Virus record (IMG/VR): IMGVR_UViG_3300025738_000001
Length of the DNA: 64,000 bases
Source of the DNA: a virus
Direction: 5' to 3' (one strand)
The notes under the pieces are model-generated. The model worked only from the letters and a program-made list of their open reading frames with translations, had not been told where the DNA came from and searched no databases. Positions 16,839 through 58,124 of the stretch are shown here, piece by piece; within the stretch, counting starts at the first letter, position 1; every line of letters starts with the position of its first letter. The translations under genes and the position numbers were made by a program.

Positions 16839-19800
16839 ATGCCAGAATATACCCCACTAGATTTAGGTACCGGTGTTACCAGTGCCAAGCAAAGTAAGTT
16901 AGCTAATACTACTGAAGTGAAAGCTGAGAAGTTAGCACCTACTATGCTCCCATCATCGTTGGCTGAGTACGCTGCTGACAAACCTAATATCACTCTTGCT
17001 GAGATTGCTGAATACGAACAAGGTTACGCTGTTCAACAAGCACAACTCCAAGAACAAGAGCAAGCACGTATCGGTAACTTCCTTATAGAAGATACTAATA
17101 ATGTGATGGGCAACCTTGCCAACATTGGTGTACAAGCCGGTGCTGGTGTTGCACGAGTTGTTGCACAGATTGCTGCTTCTGTACCTGAGATATCAGCTAT
17201 AGCTGCACAGAAAACCATATCAGAAGAAGAGCGCACACTCTACTCAACTGCTGAGAAGAAGAAAGCCCGACTTGCTGGTGACACCCTTACTGATGCAGAG
17301 CGAGCAGTATATGAACCACAAGTCAATACTATTCAGACACGTAAACAACAAGGTACATTCGGTGACCAGTTCATTACTGAAACACAGGAGTCTACGAATA
17401 CACCTCAGTCTGTATTTTCTACAGCTAACCCTGACTTTGATGCTAGTGAGCCTGCGTTCGTTCCTGAGCAACAAACCACTCAACTTGCTACTGATACTTC
17501 TGCTGCTGATAAGCTTAGCGCCATAGACGACGTACAGAAATATATAACTGACCCTAAAGAGAAGTTCGTTAAGTTTATACGTTCACACGTAAACACTAAT
17601 AAAGAAGACGACCTTATTGCTGACCTTGGAGAAGACTATGACAAAGCTACTGCTAACTTCGAAGCTGGTAACTACGCTGATGGCGCACTCGACCTTGTTG
17701 CTGGCGGTGTTGGTTCCATCCTTAGTAATCCTAGTGCAACTGTTGGGTTCTTAGCAGAATCATTACCACAGATGTTAGCAACTACTATCCGTACTCCTGC
17801 AAACATTGCTTATGCAATTGATACAGCGACTAAGGGTATTGCTAAGTTTACTGAAGATAATGGCCGTGCTCCTACTCGTAATGAGATTAACCAGATTATG
17901 GCTGTATCTGCTTCTGCTGCCGCTGCTGAACAAGTAGGTGCCATCGGTGCTCTTGCTAAAGCTAAGAAAGTGGCTAAGGTTGCTGCTCCTCTTAAAGCTG
18001 CCAAGAATCCGGTTGTATCTAAATCTGTTACTGCACCGGTTAAGAAGATTGCTACTGCTACTGCGGGTGAAGCTGCAACTGAAGGTTTCCAAACTGCTGC
18101 GGAACAAGTAGCCGGAACTCTTGACGTATCTAAAGTAGAGGGTAAAGAAGTGTTCACTTCTGCAGCAATTGGTGGCGGTATCGGTAAAGGTATATCTACA
18201 GCTACTGAGGTAGTTCCTGCTGTTAAGACTTTGGCTCAAACTGCTACGACTAAAGCTGCTAAAGCATATGTTGCAGGCCAGGCTAAAGTAGCTAAGTCTA
18301 AAGAAGTTAAAGCAGCAAAATCAGTAGATGACCTTAAGACTCCTGAAGCTAAAGCTGAGTTCTTACTAACTCCTGATAACACTCCTGAAGATGTTGCTGG
18401 CCGTCAGAAGCAAGTTGCTGACATCCAAGAGCAGATTGATGCTGGAATGGAAGCTGTAAGTAAACTTACTGATGAGAAAGAAATCAATGCTGCGTTCGAC
18501 AAGCTTGATGCATTAGCAGAACAGCAAGAAGGTTTAGCTAATATCTCTGTGGAGACTCCTGCCCAAACTGCTACTGTAGTTGAAGCTATTACTGAAGCTA
18601 CGGAGAAGACTGCTGAATCAGATGGTTCGGTTCAACGTATATTCAACTCTATGGCTACCAGCCCGGGCCGTGTAACACCCGCTCAAGCTTTAGAAGTCGC
18701 TAACAGTGATGTTGTAACCCCTAAGCAGAAAGTCCAACTGGAGCAGTATGCTGCTACGGAAGAGGCTAAGTCAGTACTTGAAGTAGATAACGATATTCTA
18801 GTAGGTGGTAAAGGCTTCTTAGGTATTAAACAGTATCAAGCATCTATCAATGCTGCTAACACTCGCGGTGACAAGGCTGCTGCTACTAAGGCTATTGCTG
18901 GTTTAACCAAGTTTGCTACTGGTCACATTGCTAAAGCCGCTGCCTTCACTAAAGCATACGATGCTGTGATTGCTGGTGACTCTGCTGCTGATGCATTGGT
19001 TATCGGTGTACAAGCTGAATATGGTATCGAGATTCATAAGAACTCTAACCTTGCTAAGAACCCTCTTATCACTAACGTACAGAATGAAGCTGCTGCATTA
19101 ACTGCCGCTGTAACACAGGCTACCGGTACTGAATTCGTTGCTGATACTAATACTATTACTGCCCAGTCAATTGAGGCGCCTCAGAGCATACCTCAAAAGG
19201 GTAAGAAAGTCTCGAGTGAAAGTACTCCAGAAGTGGTAGAGGATTCAAGTGTTGGTATTGCACGTATTGCACAGTATGTTGATGCGATTGAAGCCAAGGG
19301 TGGTATTGAGTTAACTGAGTCATTCACTAGCAAGGTTGCTAAACTTACTTCACAGTCTGCACCGAAGAACGTGCAGTTCATGCTTAATTTGGCTCAGAAG
19401 ATTGCTGACCAGAATGCCGTTAAAGTAGTTGACCGTACTGAGGTCATTACCGAAACTGAAGTAACTGAGGAAGTAGTCACTGACTTGGAAACATCACAAG
19501 AGGTAATTACTGATGAAAACATTGTTGAACAAGTGGTTAACGAAGAAGGGACAGCGGAAGTTGAGACTAGCTCTACTGTTAATAACGAGCTTCATAATAA
19601 TACTTTGCGCAGCCACAAGCTTGGCCTACGTCCTAAGTATAACACTGCCGCTAATGTTGTAGCCAAAGGTATTAATGGTACTCTTGCTGCTAACTTCACT
19701 GGTAAAGTTAATACAGCTAACCTTCTTCATCAAGTAGAGAACTTCTTTACTGACTACGCTAATGATAAGCGTGTTGCTGGACAATTAACTCCTGCACAGT

Positions 19801-47762: not shown

Positions 47763-47837
47763 TGGAGCAGGATGGGAGAATCGAACTCCCGCTTAGATGA
47801 TTTGCAATCAACCCTCTTTCCACTTGAGTAATCCTGC
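47763..47837 (-). tRNA. tRNA-Cys (GCA), CCA encoded
   Basis: Hand fold: acceptor GCAGGAT/ATCCTGC, D-loop with GG, anticodon loop TTGCAAA (one U-U in the stem), T-arm GGGAG-TTCGATT-CTCCC, discriminator U, CCA. Confidence 0.9.
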
Positions 47838-48191
47838 ATAGAATTGCTTTTTGATAAGCCAGAAGCATAGTAGAAAACTGGCATCTAAAACTCCCCGTGT
47901 TGGACATACGGTTCCACCTATTCACGGGCTAGTTAAAATTTGTTCAACACCCTTTGATAAACCAGAGGTGAGAGGAACTGGTACGAGGGTAGCGAACTCC
48001 CTTGTCAGGTGTAACCACCACCATTACGTGCTGAGGTTACGTCCTGAGTTGCGGCTCAGGTATCCTATTAGGATACGTCCAGTCGCGCTTTACTGGAATT
48101 ACCGAGCCATAATATTAGCTTGGGAACAGGTACGTAAGGATGCTTACGTGTTATCTGCAAGCCGCTCTTGCAAGCCTGCCCAAGTCTAAAC
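47838..48191 (-). ncRNA. ORF-free hairpin-rich RNA segment inside the tRNA array
   Basis: Perfect hairpins at 48043-48060, 48060-48076, 48132-48149 and 48156-48172 (6-7 bp each). T-arm-like AGGGA-GTTCGCT-ACCCT followed by CGTACCA ends near 47979. Butt-joined to flanking RNAs. Confidence 0.3.
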
Positions 48192-48273
48192 TGGTCGGAG
48201 TGACGGGGTACTCTCCCGCACGTAGGCAATTAAAGGCCTGCTCTTTGAGGTATCGTATTTGAGCTACACTCCG
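48192..48273 (-). ncRNA. Non-canonical tRNA-like RNA (82 nt, ACCA encoded, 8-nt anticodon-like loop CUUUAAUU)
   Basis: Perfect 7-bp acceptor CGGAGTG/CACTCCG + A + CCA; UA-GCUC...GAGC D-stem with a 17-nt loop lacking GG; 4-bp AGGC/GCCU stem; T-arm GCGGG-AGAGUAC-CCCGU lacks TTC. Confidence 0.45.
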
Positions 48274-48279
48274 TGAATT

Positions 48280-48381
48280 TGGTGACTCGTATCGTGAGCC
48301 TAACGGGATGGACCCATACCTGCGTTTACTACTAGACGGGCTTGATTCGCCATAAGGTTACTAGGGCCTTAAGTAAGTAAC
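48280..48381 (-). ncRNA. Spacer RNA ending in a minihelix + ACCA
   Basis: 3' end GGCTC-ACGATAC-GAGTC-ACCA (5-bp stem, 7-nt loop), directly followed by AAUUCA and the next tRNA-like RNA. Confidence 0.3.
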
Positions 48382-48457
48382 TGGTAGCAATGACTGGGGT
48401 TGAACCAGCGACCTTCCGCGTATGAAGCGGACGCTCTCCCTACTGAGCTACATTGCT
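48382..48457 (-). tRNA. tRNA-Met (CAT) (elongator Met or Ile2 cannot be distinguished), CCA encoded
   Basis: Hand fold, 76 nt: acceptor AGCAATG/CATTGCT, D-arm GCTC-AGTAGGGA-GAGC, anticodon arm TCCGC-TTCATAC-GCGGA, T-arm GCTGG-TTCAACC-CCAGT, ACCA. Confidence 0.9.
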
Positions 48458-48575: not shown

Positions 48576-48648
48576 TGGGGGATAGGGTGGAATCGAACCA
48601 CCTTAGTCGACTTCTGCCCAAACTACGATGTTCTCGCGTTGCTATCCC
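48576..48648 (-). ncRNA. Degenerate tRNA-like RNA (73 nt)
   Basis: Acceptor GGGATAG/CTATCCC and canonical T-arm GGTGG-TTCGATT-CCACC. Position 8 is C, the D-stem is 3 bp, and the anticodon region is a bulged 7-bp stem with loop GCAGAAG. No readable anticodon. Confidence 0.45.
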
Positions 48649-50687: not shown

Positions 50688-51248
50688 AAATCACCTCATA
50701 GTTAATTGGTGACTCGTTTATACTCATAGAGCCATTGAGTTTGCCCACTTTCTTTATATAAGGCACCCGTGAGCTAGGGCTGTCAACTGTTTACGTCTAG
50801 TTCTGGGACGGGGTTTTGTCGCACTTCCAGCGGAATCCAATACTAATTAAGTTTCTGAGGATAACAGCAGCAATACTACGGTTTTTGTCATCGGAGAAGT
50901 TCAAAACCTGTTGAAAAATCGCCCTCAATAAAACCACTAGCGCCATTGGACTTTGCTTAGGTATCCAAAGCTTCACATGGACTAAGCTATCCTGATAGCG
51001 ATACTCGCCAGTGCTTATGCTGGCTTTCTGAACTAATGGGCTTATTGAGTTACCTGGTGACGGGGGTAAGACGGCTGCGTAGATTCATACAGCGTAACAT
51101 TGAAGTAGCTACTCTTTGCGGAGGCATACACACTAGCCCCACTTAACTCATTACCACTCACATCGTTGGTGAGCTGCTTGTATACAGCTTCAAGTACTAG
51201 GTTTTTAGAGAGGTCTGCTTTGCCTCTTATTAGGACGCTGTAAGTGAA

Positions 51249-52063: not shown

Positions 52064-52279
52064 GGGACGGCCAGGGGAATCGAACCCCTGTTAGAGACTA
52101 GGACATCAGTCACATGCCGTTAAGGTTAATTAGGCCTATGTGGATAGTTGCAACTACACACTAATCATCTGTTGGGGAATTAAACCCCAATGCTAGTTTC
52201 CTTTGCACCAAGCACCGACATTGTTCGGATTACGGGAAAGCCTACGATAGTAGCGCGCTCTATAAAGTAGCGCCGTCCC
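52064..52279 (-). ncRNA. 216-nt tRNA-like RNA: acceptor stem + T-arm closing a ~140-nt structured insert
   Basis: 8-bp perfect terminal pairing GGGACGGC/GCCGTCCC. T-arm AGGGG-TTCGATT-CCCCT next to the 3' strand. Internal T-arm-like GGGG-TTTAATT-CCCC at 52174-52188. 8 nt downstream of tRNA-Ser. Confidence 0.5.
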
Positions 52280-52287
52280 ATAATTAG

Positions 52288-52376
52288 TGGCGGAGGTAGC
52301 AGGACTTGAACCTGCACACCCTTTCGAGTGAATGAATTAGCAATCCATGACGATACCAATTTCGCTTGATACCTCC
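52288..52376 (-). tRNA. tRNA-Ser (GCT), class II, CCA encoded
   Basis: Hand fold, 89 nt: acceptor GGAGGTA/TACCTCC, anticodon arm ATGGA-TTGCTAA-TTCAT, long variable arm CACTC-GAAA-GGGTG, T-arm GCAGG-TTCAAGT-CCTGC, GCCA. Confidence 0.9.
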
Positions 52377-52736
52377 TAAATTTGGTGAGAATTTACTATT
52401 TAAAGACCGCGATTATCTACTATAACGCTCTGAATCTGAGTGCATCTTCATCATGTATCATAGCGGACTATCCTTATCAGGACTCTCGAACATAGTCTGT
52501 TATACCTATTGAAGGGCTGCACTCTTGCCCCGCTTTAGCTACCTATTGAATTTGTCTTAGTTTTCCTAATCCAGCCCTGTGAAAGAGACTGGGCTATCTT
52601 CTCAGAGATAGTTTGAGAGGTTGCGCTCTCTTACACTTATTTTAAAGTGGTGTGTGACTCAAACCACTGTTACTCCAAGGGCCATCCGCCTACCGAAATA
52701 GGAACTTATGAATCTTACACGCGAGGAGCCAATTAA

Positions 52737-53192: not shown

Positions 53193-53635
53193 TAGAACTC
53201 CTGGGAATCAGGCTTTGCAGCACTGGTTAAAATTGTTGTAGTAAGTAGGCCAATCTCGTCTTTACCGAAAGTTTCTTCCATTTCGACGAGAAGCGCTTGT
53301 TGCTTTTTCTTGGCCTGCATTTTATTGACTTTGCCTAAGACGACTTTTTCCATCTCAACACAGTCGTTATAGTGAGCACGGTCAACCACTGAAACTATCC
53401 ATTTAATACGGAAGGCTGCTTCGTGGTCACATTCGATTGCAGGGGTAACTTCAAATACTTCTACGATTGCAACACCCGTTGGAGAGTCCACCACTACTTG
53501 CTGACCGACTTCTACATCAAGCAGAGTCTTGTACATGTATGGTTTACTTTTGTTGCCATCGTCGTTTGTGAAGCGAACAAGGATGAATTTAAAATCAGGA
53601 TTAGCGTTAGCTATTAGTAAGTTTGCATATGACAT
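53192..53635 (-). CDS. Hypothetical protein (147 aa)
   Basis: ORF track; overlap-coupled. Confidence 0.6.
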   Translation of the reverse strand: MSYANLLIANANPDFKFILVRFTNDDGNKSKPYMYKTLLDVEVGQQVVVDSPTGVAIVEVFEVTPAIECDHEAAFRIKWIVSVVDRAHYNDCVEMEKVVLGKVNKMQAKKKQQALLVEMEETFGKDEIGLLTTTILTSAAKPDSQEF

Positions 53636-54048
53636 TATTCGTGTACCCTCTTTCCAAGTAGGATGGTTGTAATCGCACGTTGACGATAGATGAATAACAG
53701 TGGGATTGTTGCTAACATAATTGCACCAAGAGCCATTAGCCCGTTACCTGCCAATAGGCATGCAAATAGTATAGGAGCACTAACCAACTGCCATGATGGA
53801 ACCATAGCTAAACCAGCCATACGATTAATAGATACTTTGAACTCAGCTACTGTGGATTCCTTTTTAAGTAAAATGATTTTACTATCATCAGCAATGGCTA
53901 AAGATGCTACCGCAGTGATGGCTATTAGCACACCTACGTAGATTTGCAAGCCAAGGATTGCATCAGGGTTAAGAGGTAAGCCAAGGTACATAGAGTACGC
54001 CAGGAACACTAGTACGCATAAGCGCACTATAAAAAATGCTATTCTCAT
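53635..54048 (-). CDS. Integral membrane protein (137 aa, ~4 TM)
   Basis: ORF track; four hydrophobic segments. Confidence 0.65.
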   Translation of the reverse strand: MRIAFFIVRLCVLVFLAYSMYLGLPLNPDAILGLQIYVGVLIAITAVASLAIADDSKIILLKKESTVAEFKVSINRMAGLAMVPSWQLVSAPILFACLLAGNGLMALGAIMLATIPLLFIYRQRAITTILLGKRVHE

Positions 54049-54070: not shown

Positions 54071-54137
54071 ATTAAAAGAGGTGGCCCCTGACTGTTAAAT
54101 TAATGCACATTAATGTATAACAATTCTAATGGGGCCA
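54071..54137 (-). terminator. Terminator-like structure closing RNA array 3
   Basis: 7-bp stem UGGCCCC/GGGGCCA (54131-54137 with 54082-54088) enclosing a nested hairpin, followed by CCUCUUUUAAU. The loop is long, so weak. Confidence 0.3.
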
Positions 54138-54205
54138 TAGTTCGACGTCCGACTCACTGTAACCGCCTTAATGGGGAGGATAAACGTGTGAGTCAGATAT
54201 TTGCA

Positions 54206-54266
54206 GTACCGCTCCCGATTCGAACGGGTGACTCTCCACTGGCTTGCGACCAAGTTAGAGCGGTAC
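54206..54266 (-). ncRNA. Truncated tRNA-like RNA (~61 nt, no D-arm)
   Basis: Perfect acceptor GTACCGC/GCGGTAC and T-arm ACCCG-TTCGAAT-CGGGA. Only one internal hairpin, with loop UCGCAAG (GCA as in tRNA-Cys, but C at position 33). Confidence 0.45.
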
Positions 54267-54272
54267 ATTGTT

Positions 54273-54434
54273 TGGGTGCCTTACGGAGGATTCGAACCTC
54301 TTCACAACCTACTTACCCCAATGCTCGTCGTCATGACTCAGACCAAAGGTGTATGTTTCAGAAGTGCCGGATTCCTTATACCACTGTCAACAAGGTAGGA
54401 GCTACCTACTTCTCTAGTGGGGCGGACGTAAGAC
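54273..54434 (-). ncRNA. ~160-nt tRNA-like RNA with large insert
   Basis: T-arm AGAGG-TTCGAAT-CCTCC then GTAAGGC-ACCCA. The only complementary 5' strand within reach is GTCTTAC at 54428-54434 (one G-U pair). Interior folds into a long irregular hairpin CCACU...AGUGG. Confidence 0.35.
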
Positions 54435-54653
54435 GAAATACTGAGCCGTGTTCTATCTTCTTGGGTACGGCAATGGCCCTCAATAAGCCACAGGACTTGT
54501 GTGCAACATTGTATAAAAAATCACACAAAGTGGTAGGCTGGATTCTTTGTAGGAATAACTCCCCGCGTTTAATGTATACAGTTCACGGGGTGCTAGGATA
54601 TTACAGAGGACTGATTACCTCACCGATATTCCACCTACGGAATTAGTTAATAC

Positions 54654-54748
54654 ACTTATAAGAGTGTTCGGCTACGATTACCAAACCATGAATATTGAAG
54701 CAGTCAGGGAACCACACCTTTTACTTCAATCCGAACACTCATATAAGT
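54654..54748 (-). other. 95-nt extended imperfect hairpin in the leader of RNA array 3
   Basis: 18-bp stem with one mismatch (acttataagagtgttcgg / ccgaacactcatataagt) plus an inner 7-bp stem attgaag/cttcaat. Confidence 0.5.
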
Positions 54749-54865
54749 ATATTGTTGAAAGATTCCCATACACAGTTATGAGGTAACACTGCAATCCTAT
54801 GTATGAGATTTAATGACTCTTTCCGCACCATTCTAACCTGACTGCAGTGAGCAATATACATATTA

Positions 54866-54879: not shown

Positions 54880-55503
54880 TTATGCTCTCTTCATCTGGAA
54901 GCGAGTTATGTTTAGTGCAGTATCAAAGTAGACTGCTATACCTGAGCAATAACCATCTTCATGGTACAACATTTTTAGTGCCTCTTTAGCAGCACGCTCT
55001 ACAAACTTGAAAGCGTTAGAGGATGTATAAGCACACCCTTTGAACTGTTTGGATTTACGTACATAGCCTAAGCAAAAGTGATGCATGGCAATACGTGCTT
55101 GTGATGGTTCAATACCATAGTCAATAAGGTGACGCATAATATTGGCATCAAGTTCATCTATATTAATGAGATGTTGTAAGGCTATCTTAGAGATGGGTTT
55201 GAGGTCACGGCAAACGTCCGCTGCTTGAGATAACAATTCGCTCCATAAGTCGAAGCCTTCATTGTTACGTACAGCCTGGATAGCTCCTATGGCCTGCATC
55301 TCGTCTTCATAGGTGATACCTACATTGGTTCGGTGTGCGATAGTATGCTCAACAACATCATGTGCAATGAGTACCGGTGTACGATTATCCTCACGTACAC
55401 AGTTGATGATTGAGCCAAGTGTACCAAAGCGGTCTTCGGATAGATTGCCGAAACGTACTTGCTCCCCGTAAGAGCAGTAGTGCAATACAAAACGACCTTT
55501 CAT
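54880..55503 (-). CDS. Hypothetical protein (207 aa)
   Basis: ORF track. Possible HD-like LIAHDVVEH, but unconvincing. Confidence 0.6.
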   Translation of the reverse strand: MKGRFVLHYCSYGEQVRFGNLSEDRFGTLGSIINCVREDNRTPVLIAHDVVEHTIAHRTNVGITYEDEMQAIGAIQAVRNNEGFDLWSELLSQAADVCRDLKPISKIALQHLINIDELDANIMRHLIDYGIEPSQARIAMHHFCLGYVRKSKQFKGCAYTSSNAFKFVERAAKEALKMLYHEDGYCSGIAVYFDTALNITRFQMKRA

Positions 55504-56781: not shown

Positions 56782-56944
56782 TCTTACGTTCCTCATTAAG
56801 TATTAGGCGGAGTTTATGTAGTTTGTTCATAGTCATAGTTAAGTCAAATGATTGGGCATGGGAGATGCGTAGAGTACCTACACTAAGCAGGTACTGCATT
56901 GCCTCATCCAGTGTCTTCAATGCCTCTGTATTAGCTAAGGGCAT
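56768..56944 (-). CDS. Early hypothetical protein (58 aa)
   Basis: ORF track 56768..56950; overlaps the RNAP II stop. Confidence 0.5.
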   Translation of the reverse strand: MPLANTEALKTLDEAMQYLLSVGTLRISHAQSFDLTMTMNKLHKLRLILNEERKNDKA

Positions 56945-58124
56945 ATTCACTCTCTCTGATTAGTTGTGGTAGGTCATAGCTTAACTTCTCGAACAAGTCA
57001 CATTCTTGCATGCTTCCTAACACGCGTGTTAATGCAGGGCAGGCTGCGATTTCAGCCATGATTTCTTTATAGTTGTAGCGTACTTCGTTCATGTTGTTAG
57101 GGTGAGCTTTGAACTCATCATGCACAGTAACTACTGCAAATGGTTTCTTGTCTAACATAAGGTTAAGACGCGCAACCATACGGGTTAAGTCAAATGTATT
57201 CACTAGTTTGATATCAGTTAGCTTCATGTCATGAATGTGAGGCATACAAATCATTTCAGGTTCTCTTGGTACGATAGGAGTATCAGTACGTTGGTCTAAC
57301 TCGTATGTCATAGCAGCATGCTTAAGGCGCACATCTATTAGGTTGTAGTTACAACGAGCTTTCATCTCACGTACAACCAGACCATCGAATGATTGAGTCA
57401 TATTAGCAGGCAATGAGATACCGTTATCACTGGCTCCCACTTCATCCCATACATAGGTGAATGATGAACCAATCTCTTCAACTTCAATGATAGCCTTCTG
57501 TTGAGTCTTAACTTTAACGTGACAGGCCATACCATCAAGCTGAGTCCAGTGCTGTGCGTCTACAGTAGTATCCCAAAAGTTGTTAATGATACGCATACCA
57601 AGCATAGCTCCCAGCAGCTCCTTCTCCATAGTATCCATGAAGCGTAAGTATTCAGGAGTATCATCACCGAATACCTTTTTAGGTTCAGCTTTAGAGTTAT
57701 AGAAGGTAACCATGATAGGGTTCTTGATTATCTTACGGGTGATTCCTAAGCCCATTTGGATTGACATCTTAAGGTATAAGTCTGAGCGTTCACCTGTATC
57801 AATAAGGTTAACTAACTTAGCAGTGGCATGACAACCAGTCATACAGGCCAACATCTGTGGGCCAGACGCAGTAGCATCCAGTCCCATTAGATGACCAGAT
57901 GGCTTACCTTCTTGGCAGTCACGTAATGCATATACAGCCTTGATGAATAGGATTGGTTCATCAGCGTCATACATCATGTTCTCAAGTGATTCAATGTTGT
58001 CATCAACCCAGTCAATGCGGTCTTGCCATAAGGCCTTATCCAGACCTCCCGGATACTGAGCAGTTACACCCATGTTGTTTGCGATATCAATCTTTACGTA
58101 TTGGATTCCAGTAAATGTTTGCAT
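56931..58124 (-). CDS. Phage RNA polymerase II, catalytic subunit (N4 gp16-like, T7-like palm/fingers)
   Basis: Motif A GLDATASG, motif B R-KII-K-NPIMVTF-YN (R-x3-K-x7-Y), motif C VTVHDEF. Confidence 0.85.
   Translation of the reverse strand: MQTFTGIQYVKIDIANNMGVTAQYPGGLDKALWQDRIDWVDDNIESLENMMYDADEPILFIKAVYALRDCQEGKPSGHLMGLDATASGPQMLACMTGCHATAKLVNLIDTGERSDLYLKMSIQMGLGITRKIIKNPIMVTFYNSKAEPKKVFGDDTPEYLRFMDTMEKELLGAMLGMRIINNFWDTTVDAQHWTQLDGMACHVKVKTQQKAIIEVEEIGSSFTYVWDEVGASDNGISLPANMTQSFDGLVVREMKARCNYNLIDVRLKHAAMTYELDQRTDTPIVPREPEMICMPHIHDMKLTDIKLVNTFDLTRMVARLNLMLDKKPFAVVTVHDEFKAHPNNMNEVRYNYKEIMAEIAACPALTRVLGSMQECDLFEKLSYDLPQLIRESEYALS

Follow-up and report, generated by a model that had tools for sequence, protein, structure and literature searches.

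Does a stretch of phage DNA without credible genes encode RNAs that resemble tRNAs, and, if so, would such RNAs decode? The question is raised by positions 54071-54434 (minus strand) of the window, a 64,000-nucleotide (nt) stretch of DNA from the IMG/VR virus record IMGVR_UViG_3300025738_000001. An earlier note, made from the letters of this DNA, had described there an array of RNAs (array 3) consisting of a long tRNA-like RNA (element 1), a 61-nt tRNA-like RNA (element 2), and two closing hairpins (hairpins 4 and 5), and all the sequence features listed for it were found in place on the minus strand. Our analysis showed that element 2 is a tRNA-shaped structure beyond chance and that the array is an accessory non-coding cassette, set within a conserved island of structured RNA modules that lies among the middle genes.

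The window derives from a 77.9-kb JGI metagenome contig. A 3131-amino acid (aa) open reading frame (ORF) on the plus strand and an N4-type RNAP2 subunit encoded at 56931-58124 identified its source as an N4-like podovirus, which is uncultured and represented by metagenome contigs only. A run of minus-strand genes spans ~26 kb to 64 kb, and array 3 lies on the same strand in an 830-nt gap without credible genes, between the ORFs 54880-55503 and 53635-54048. Relatives were collected through homologues of RNAP2, the identity of which to the window protein was 69% in L004, 64% in L005, 62% in L090, and 54% in L007; L008 was near-identical to the window and was counted with it as one independent sequence. 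Among 50,697 phage records, no cultured phage had DNA similar to the array 3 region.

A conserved 61-nt RNA with a tRNA-like minihelix

The perfect acceptor stem and the UUCGAAU T arm that had been described for element 2 were confirmed, and the acceptor could be extended to 9 base pairs (bp) (Table 1). The acceptor adjoins the T stem in a tRNA-like 12-bp stack, and the space between acceptor and T arm is filled by a 6-nt connector, UCUAAC, and two small hairpins (hairpins 1 and 2) rather than by the single internal hairpin that had been proposed. The fold had a z-score of -2.1, and the acceptor pairs had probabilities of 0.77-0.99 in a 521-nt context. As in a tRNA, a 7-bp acceptor is stacked on a T arm with a loop of the consensus UUCRANY. 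No CCA is encoded, and UGCAAA follows the element in both the window and L007, whereas the tRNA-Met, the tRNA-Cys, and a tRNA-Ser-like gene of the same phage all encode CCA.

A copy of element 2 was found in L007 (14562-14620), with 90.8% identity over 76 nt and 57 of the 59 aligned bases identical. Similarity collapsed a few bases beyond the ends of the element, and the proteins that flank it in L007 are unrelated to those in the window. By comparison, the true tRNA-Met showed only 76% identity between the window and L004, although L004 is the closer relative. The L007 copy differs in four places: a 1-nt deletion in the 5' acceptor strand leaves seven pairs (the last a U-G), the second base of the hairpin 1 loop changes from C to U, the hairpin 2 loop is shorter by 2 nt, and a C-G pair of the T stem becomes U-G. 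All scorable pair cells (34/34) were standard pairs, compared with 26-55% when the 3' partners were slid by 1-3 columns; RNAalifold was uninformative on the two-sequence alignment. With its 9-bp Watson-Crick closure at tRNA distance, its fold, and its conservation in L007, element 2 is beyond chance, and, judged from these sequences, it appears to be the sole module of the cassette under clear evolutionary constraint.

A covariance model of element 2 scored 96.1 bits for the window copy and 84 bits for that of L007 and detected no further copy in 86 N4-like loci or in L090-L092. No homologue was matched in the 50,697 phage records, and when IMG/VR, JGI metagenomes, and GTDB genomes were scanned with exact or degenerate patterns, there were no matches or only chance ones in coding DNA. 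Locus searches for further relatives with single proteins were empty or too distant, and those with the two downstream proteins returned only near-identical or already known contigs. With two independent copies, element 2 can for now be described as a candidate of the phage tRNA-cluster accessory RNA kind, well-defined rather than a discovery.

A coding explanation for element 2 was excluded because the indels of -1 and -2 nt shift the reading frame while the nucleotides stay conserved. Small minus-strand ORFs starting at the AUG before element 2 were out of frame for ~25 nt between the window and L007 and were rejected. On the plus strand, the 177-aa ORF 54113-54646, a JGI-annotated gene across the array, had no Pfam or PHROG match and no counterpart in L007, and it is most likely a spurious gene call over structured RNA.

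The standard tRNA detectors did not recognize element 2. Within 54071-54434, there was no match to the tRNA family of Rfam (RF00005; threshold, 29 bits), even at E values up to 10, and no ARAGORN call in default mode or with -ps80, though the same searches recovered the tRNA-Met, the tRNA-Cys, and the tRNA-Ser-like gene of the window. Canonical tRNA-Cys(GCA) at 47763-47837 and tRNA-Met at 48382-48457 were the only calls of ARAGORN in the window in default mode, to which Rfam added the tRNA-Ser-like gene (52293-52374). The mitochondrial mode of ARAGORN (-mt) left element 2 uncalled by default, and with -ps90 it gave 86 mostly spurious calls, none of which matched 54266-54206. When the filters were switched off, the next-best matches of the element 2 model were genuine tRNAs, namely the tRNA-Asn of L004 (16.6 bits) and the tRNA-Met of the window (12.3 bits). 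The acceptor/T-arm minihelix, a leader shared with tRNA-Met (described below), these model matches, and the failure of the tRNA detectors support the earlier view of element 2 as a tRNA-derived RNA with an altered core.

Known non-decoding tRNA mimics include the tRNA-like domain of transfer-messenger RNA (tmRNA), the bacterial and phage YrlA Y-RNA-like RNAs, and mammalian mascRNA (61 nt). Such mimics keep the acceptor/T-arm part that is seen by RNase P, the CCA-adding enzyme, and T-loop-modifying enzymes, and their anticodon arm is stunted or replaced. Array 3 differs from them in having no Rfam match to tmRNA, YrlA, or another family, no G3-U70, no Ro-binding stem, and no tag frame of a known type. 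ARAGORN identified no tmRNA, and the sole weak Rfam match to a tmRNA 3' end lies at 52073-52090, in array 2; for YrlA or Y-RNA-like RNAs, there was no Rfam match in the array at E values up to 10.

The core of element 2 can be drawn in two ways. It may be read as a D-arm-less tRNA, as had been suggested, with hairpin 1 as the anticodon arm and hairpin 2 as the variable arm; GCA then lies in the loop U(C/U)GCAAG, position 33 is U in L007, position 37 is A, and a U follows the acceptor. A mini-cloverleaf may equally be drawn, in which hairpin 1 replaces the D arm and hairpin 2 corresponds to an anticodon arm in truncated form, and the C-to-U change in L007 then keeps a C-G or U-G pair closing a GCAA tetraloop. 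The D-arm-less description thus holds as one possible reading of two, and the GCA loop with C33 that had been pointed out is present in the window but could instead represent this tetraloop.

In the D-arm-less reading, element 2 could be a working tRNA-Cys that receives CCA, is charged by cysteinyl-tRNA synthetase (CysRS), and takes part in translation, perhaps as a substitute that resists nucleases. CysRS identifies its tRNA mainly by GCA and U73, and the GCA of the loop, U33 in L007, A37, and the U after the acceptor are in line with such a role. The 6-nt connector in place of a D arm matches the layout of D-arm-less mitochondrial tRNAs, for example metazoan mitochondrial tRNA-Ser(AGY), with which element 2 also shares a 7-nt loop, a normal T arm, and a length of ~60 nt. 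However, the mitochondrial mode of ARAGORN, which models D-arm-less tRNAs, is silent, the putative anticodon stem has four pairs (one of them U-G) rather than five, position 33 is C in the window, and an extra mini-hairpin stands before the T arm. Decoding is further opposed by the missing CCA, which all three decoding tRNAs of the phage encode, by the canonical tRNA-Cys(GCA) already present, and by the tetraloop reading of the loop. We know of no D-arm-less tRNAs that work on bacterial ribosomes and of no specialised translation factors for such tRNAs in bacteriophages. A working tRNA-Cys is regarded as highly improbable.

The cassette, its leaders, and its other modules

In the alignment with L004, L005, and L090, the window reads ACGGCUCAGU, then the cassette, then UUUUAAUCUAACUAA, and the L004 counterpart reads ACGGCUCAGUUUUUAACCUAACUAA. 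In these relatives, a pseudoknot motif upstream of the array (described below) continues directly into the ribosome-binding site of the homologous downstream ORF. The borders of the indel nearly coincide with the span 54071-54434 that had been assigned to the array. The cassette is lacking in the three closest relatives as a clean indel, and the array is therefore accessory. In the window, the cassette directly precedes a ribosome-binding site, and the downstream gene encodes a 137-aa membrane protein.

The leader of element 2, CCAAACAAU, is identical to that before the tRNA-Met of the same phage, and the tail of element 1 with the spacer, ACCCA-AACAAU, mirrors the ACCA-AACAAU that precedes tRNA-Met. 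In array 1, the 70-nt element has the leader ACUAAUUAU, and so has the long RNA in array 2. In L007, the leader of element 2 is CCAAAUUAU, and in L004, that of tRNA-Met is GCAAAUAAU. The motif AAYWAUG was found at 6 minus-strand sites in ~2.9 kb of array sequence, compared with ~1.3 predicted from the genome-wide rate; it is enriched locally in the arrays only, and a genome-wide motif was ruled out. A second copy of UUAUUGAGGGC at 50931 was a chance-level 11-mer with no motif behind it. The shared leaders are in line with a processing route common to these RNAs and true tRNAs; bacterial RNase P prefers a U at position -1.

These features may also be explained by a processing or punctuation device, in which the tRNA-like modules would be only RNase P and RNase E cleavage signals in a long middle transcript, the excised RNAs would be functionless, and hairpins 4 and 5 would protect the new 5' end of the mRNA of the 137-aa membrane protein. 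Analogous arrangements are the E. coli tRNA-tufB co-transcript and mitochondrial tRNA punctuation. The leaders held in common with genuine tRNAs, the U at -1 before each stem, the position directly before a ribosome-binding site, the stable hairpins after element 2, and the dispensability of the cassette in relatives agree with such a device. However, the acceptor/T minihelix would suffice as a signal, yet the internal hairpins and loops of element 2 are equally conserved. In L007, element 2 precedes an AAA ATPase gene, with 300 nt of unrelated structured RNA between them; the downstream gene being different, element 2 is therefore not tied to a particular mRNA. A pure punctuation device appears somewhat unlikely.

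For element 1, the T arm is probably beyond chance. Its L007 counterpart reads AAGG-UUAGAAG-CCUU, in which the outer pair changes from G-C to A-U (compensatory) and the T-loop consensus is gone. The T arm, the 3' acceptor strand, and the ACC tail resemble the 3' third of a tRNA gene, and element 1 is treated here as putatively tRNA-derived at its 3' end; the resemblance of its 3' part to the 3' ends of phage tRNA genes is only generic (E about 5). The proposed long-range closure was compared with chance. For approximately 20% of random T arms, a 7-bp partner exists 96-300 nt upstream when G-U pairs are permitted, a flexible rule yields about one long closure candidate per shuffled 64 kb, and, by our own arithmetic, the chance of 8 bp with at most one G-U over ~400 trials is about 0.03. 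The 162-nt fold was no better than shuffles (z-score, -0.12), and the closure appears in the minimum-free-energy fold of a 370-nt context. The caution of the earlier note that this stem could be fortuitous was well founded, given that it is thermodynamically weak and that its 3' strand is missing from L007. The claim of a tRNA-derived RNA is therefore supported only in part, by the T arm, the 3' strand, and the tail but not by the long-range stem, which is borderline, weak, and unconserved; the 157-nt closed unit is a possible but unproven model. Conservation of the acceptor pairings in relatives, which had been set as a test for both elements, was observed in L007 for element 2 but not for the closure of element 1.

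Assignments of element 1 as tmRNA, an intron-containing tRNA, or YrlA were rejected, with no support from ARAGORN or Rfam and no D or anticodon arm that could be drawn. Its acceptor has U2-G71 and C3-G70 and not the G3-U70 of tmRNA, and no extended terminal stem of the Ro-binding type is present beyond the 8-bp closure.

The two closing hairpins of 7 bp described before are present and stable (z-score, -2.2), and hairpin 4 can be extended to 9 bp from its 7-bp core at 54194-54188/54157-54151. L008 carries a G-to-T change at 54164, within the interior of hairpin 4. The stem of hairpin 5 encloses an A/U-rich inner hairpin, and the hairpin ends GGGGCC-A-CC; a terminator-like alternative hairpin, AGGGG-CCA-CCUCU followed by a U run, overlaps its 3' end. 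An A/U-rich spacer with AU at its end stands before each of the two hairpins, as before the tRNAs. Neither hairpin has a sequence counterpart in L007, where the 300 nt after element 2 consist of other structured RNA.

The two elements and the hairpins might also be functionless, drifting remnants of a former tRNA cluster. That element 1 retains only a tRNA-like 3' third and in L007 is without the T-loop consensus and the 3' acceptor strand, that the cassette is lacking in three relatives, and that hairpins 4 and 5 are unconserved all speak for such decay. By contrast, element 2 is better conserved than a bona fide tRNA of these phages, and this over a larger phylogenetic distance, similarity drops sharply at its ends, and its helices are intact in both copies. 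Decay is plausible for element 1 and the hairpins, not for element 2, and as an account of the whole array we consider it unlikely.

Table 1. Positions of the array 3 features and of two long RNAs with a T arm
Feature	Position	Strand	Description
Whole array, 362-nt cassette	54078..54439	-	Precise indel relative to L004, L005, and L090 (alignment)
Element 1 as proposed, 157 nt	54278..54434	-	Closure GUCUUACG/CGUAAGGC, 8 bp, one U-G, stacked on 4-bp T stem; closure uncertain
Element 1 5' partner	54434-54427	-	GUCUUACG; only partner available
Element 1 T arm	54286..54300	-	GAGG-UUCGAAU-CCUC; L007 counterpart at aligned position
Element 1 3' strand	54285-54278	-	CGUAAGGC, then tail A-CC-CA at 54277-54273
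Spacer	54267..54272	-	AACAAU; with preceding CCA forms leader CCAAACAAU; ends in U at -1 before first G of element 2
Element 2	54205..54266	-	61-nt tRNA-shaped RNA + discriminator-like U; fold, covariance model, L007 copy
Element 2 acceptor	54266-54260 with 54212-54206	-	7 bp, all Watson-Crick
Element 2 hairpin 1	54253-54239	-	UUGG-UCGCAAG-CCAG, loop UCGCAAG
Element 2 hairpin 2	54238-54229	-	UGG-AGAG-UCA
Element 2 T arm	54228-54214	-	CCCG-UUCGAAU-CGGG, 4-bp stem
Hairpin 4	54149..54196	-	Stem CUGACUCAC/GUGAGUCGG, 9 bp, 30-nt interior; preceded by AAAUAU
Hairpin 5	54074..54137	-	UGGCCCC/GGGGCCA, 7 bp, at 54137-54082; AACUAU before, CCUCUUUU after
Array 2 multi-branched RNA, 216 nt	52064-52279	-	Perfect 8-bp closure GGGACGGC/GCCGUCCC beside 6-bp T arm, loop UUCGAUU
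L007 117-nt RNA	17175-17291 (-17295)		7-bp closure UGCAGUU/AACUGCA, T arm GUUGG-UUCGAGU-CCAAC, encoded ACCA

Proposed processing and function of the modules

We tentatively propose that array 3 consists of co-transcribed modules that are processed like tRNAs, with a non-decoding tRNA mimic at their core, a reading that we consider quite possible. The cassette would comprise four stem-closed RNA modules, separated by short A/U-rich leaders ending in AU before G, as for genuine tRNAs. The modules would be transcribed together with middle genes within a long minus-strand transcript, from which host tRNA-processing enzymes would excise them, with RNase P acting on the 5' side and endonucleases or exonucleases on the 3' side. 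Element 2 keeps the 12-bp minihelix and the T loop that are recognised by tRNA-handling proteins; it has no canonical D arm, anticodon arm, or encoded CCA and is therefore read as a non-decoding tRNA mimic. It may act by occupying a protein that binds tRNAs, be it a host defence nuclease directed at tRNAs or an enzyme of tRNA processing or modification. A nuclease-decoy or regulatory function, as suggested in the earlier note, is a hypothesis. Element 1 would be a tRNA-derived 3' end that may form a closed 157-nt RNA similar in type to T4 RNA C, and hairpins 4 and 5 would be lineage-specific structured modules, possibly end-protecting. The sequences show how element 2 is built and conserved, that the region is non-coding, that the cassette behaves as an indel, and that leaders are shared; the transcription, processing, mimicry, and binding target in this scheme are inferred.

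Several points weigh against this proposal. Element 2 is represented by two independent sequences only (the window with the near-identical L008, and L007), none of its pairs changes on both sides, and covariation is not demonstrated, so that its conservation could partly reflect recent transfer. U73 and a GCA-containing 7-nt loop, with U33 in L007, could mean a working tRNA-Cys-like molecule. The closure and T stem of element 1 have a probability of ~0.05 in the 521-nt context, and the closure is not conserved in L007, which is without the 3' acceptor strand. The AAYWAUG motif is short and is not enriched genome-wide (58 observed versus 53 expected). For the array, no promoter or terminator of a known type was identified. 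A tRNA-repair context was also rejected, as the nearby 489-aa ligase is an ATP-dependent DNA ligase rather than an RNA-repair enzyme and the match to a polynucleotide kinase was weak.

Full-length phage tRNAs can counter tRNA-targeting defences, as in the case of T5 tRNA-Lys against PARIS (PMC11464382); anticodon-loop variants occur among counter-defence phage tRNAs (PMC10264068), and evasion of retron/PtuAB has also been described (PMC11555353). With canonical phage tRNAs, element 2 shares the minihelix, the T loop UUCGAAU, the tRNA-Met leader, and the clustering with real tRNAs, and the presence/absence pattern of the cassette is typical of counter-defence cargo, as with such tRNAs. However, the published counter-defence tRNAs are full-length, chargeable molecules that replace cleaved host tRNAs and are not mimics, whereas element 2 fails Rfam and ARAGORN, has no D arm or full anticodon arm, and encodes no CCA. 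As a 61-nt RNA that would keep only the protein-recognition face of a tRNA, element 2 would offer a compact test case for non-decoding tRNA mimics in phages.

Long T-arm RNAs and the structured island

Since the T4 era, phage tRNA clusters have been known to include additional stable RNAs whose ends resemble those of tRNAs, and the nearest precedent for array 3 is found among them. T4 RNA C (species 1 RNA, rnaC, 139 nt) and RNA D are, like array 3, encoded among phage tRNA genes on the same strand. At the end of T4 RNA C, a perfect T arm, CCGGG-UUCGAAU-CCCGG, precedes a 7-nt strand whose pairing with the 5' end is imperfect, and long extra hairpins stand in place of the D and anticodon arms. 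The T4 RNA C-type layout was defined as a location in a phage tRNA cluster on the tRNA strand, a length of 100-220 nt, and a 3' T arm beside a strand pairing with the 5' end. This layout is shared by the 216-nt RNA of array 2 and a 117-nt RNA of L007 and, on paper, by element 1. For element 1, it can be drawn with the closure discussed above, which is borderline by chance, improbable in the fold, and missing in L007. The 216-nt RNA, with a fold z-score of -2.8, ACUAAUUAU before it, and UAACAAUG after it, fits much better than element 1 and is the best T4 RNA C-type candidate in the window. The 117-nt RNA was detected by neither ARAGORN nor Rfam; around it, 1.4 kb of L007 (16384-17787) are without called genes.

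Beyond the T loop, no sequence similarity was detectable between T4 RNA C or D and the array elements. Paralogy of element 1, the 216-nt RNA, and the 117-nt RNA was likewise rejected, as only the T loop aligned and shared 14-mers were at the level of chance for 7.6 kb. T4 RNA C and D were shown experimentally to be stable RNAs, whereas the array 3 elements are known from sequence alone, and element 2, at 61 nt, is much smaller than either and is without a T4 counterpart. In a scan for T arms (4-bp stem, TTCRA loop), 12 were found on the minus strand of the window, compared with 4.7 per 64 kb on both strands of shuffled sequence.

A more far-reaching possibility is that element 2 founds a class of phage miniature tRNA mimics of 61 nt, which would retain of a tRNA only the acceptor/T-arm face, together with two small hairpins, would be released by RNase P from a tRNA-like operon, and would act as decoys or inhibitors of a tRNA-targeting immune nuclease or another host factor that binds tRNAs, with the T-arm RNAs as larger members; we regard this as rather doubtful. 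If true, a class that includes element 1, the 216-nt RNA, the 117-nt RNA, and T4 RNA C would suggest a role for the T4 RNA C/D type, the roles of which are still unknown after more than 50 years (PMC3014915).

At least five conserved modules lie in the 830-nt intergenic island. An H-type pseudoknot candidate (54445-54486, minus strand), immediately upstream of the array, is conserved across five phages, with equivalents at 12215-12260 in L004, 11874-11918 in L005, about 3704-3747 in L090, and about 14393-14440 in L007. Its layout is UUAUUGA-GGG-(5 nt)-GCCGU-A-CCC-AAGAAGAUAGAAC-ACGGC. In the five-phage alignment, 95% of the pair cells were paired, compared with 30-49% in slid controls, and 4/8 pairs changed on both sides, a level reached by 1/500 shuffles. 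In L004, L005, and L090, 15-25 nt separate the pseudoknot from the ribosome-binding site of the ORF that follows, and the pseudoknot could be a cis-regulatory or riboswitch-like element; it had no Rfam match.

Farther upstream, a 63-nt module (54787-54849, minus strand) has counterparts at about 11956-12021 in L004 and about 14110-14175 in L007, and its closing stem of ~10 bp covaries. The stems across the phages read CACUGCAGUC/GAUUGCAGUG, CAUUGCUGGC/GCUAGCAAUG, and CUGCUGUGGC/GUUGCAGCAG, and they enclose a conserved interior, GGWUDRARUGGUGCRGRWAGAGUCAUU. In the MAFFT alignment, the 5' strand of the L007 module is misplaced, and the automatic counts therefore understate covariation. The block 54561-54619 (minus strand) is 85% identical to 14286-14341 of L007, with a hairpin CCCCG-UGAACUGYAUACAUUAAA-CGGGG, and is not found in L004, L005, or L090. 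A long inverted repeat at about 54650-54745 (minus strand), flanked by UUAUAWRAGU...ACUYUUAUAAG, has equivalents in L004, L005, L090, and L007. Its inner arms covary (GUGUUCG/CGAACAC, GUACUCAG/CUGAGUAC, and GUGCUGG/CCAGCAC), and the repeat could represent either a hairpin in RNA or a site in the DNA.

With so many modules side by side, array 3 might be part of one large multi-domain non-coding RNA spanning the 830-nt island; GOLLD and ROOL are large ornate phage RNAs near tRNA genes. In agreement with this explanation, at least four further modules of the island are conserved between phages, some of them covarying (54445-54486 and 54787-54849), and the island is conserved in L007 despite different flanking genes. 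Against it, Rfam gave no match at E values up to 10, whether to GOLLD, to ROOL, or to another family, and the tRNA-type leaders between the modules suggest cutting rather than one molecule. The three closest relatives keep the upstream modules without the array, and the parts are therefore separable. A single large RNA appears very unlikely. A set of structured RNAs in uncultured N4-like phages is missed by the standard tRNA finders and Rfam.

Additional tRNA-like sequences were observed elsewhere on the minus strand of the window. The tRNA-Ser(GCU)-like gene at 52292-52376 has a long variable arm and an encoded CCA; it scored 33.8 bits with Rfam and was called by ARAGORN with -ps80 but not by default. 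A 70-nt tRNA-like element at 48579-48648 reached only 20 bits against the tRNA-Sec model. Downstream of tRNA-Met, a second tRNA-like start, ACCAAAUUCA and then CGGAGUGUAGCUCA, is found at 48260-48283 and was not called by a tRNA finder; nor was the stretch 48117-48203, which is 85% identical to 15501-15587 of L004. Upstream of the tRNA-Ser-like gene, a 170-nt non-coding block (52554-52722, minus strand) shows 74% identity to 12808-12983 of L005, which lies upstream of tRNA-Tyr, and this block is a candidate conserved non-coding RNA.

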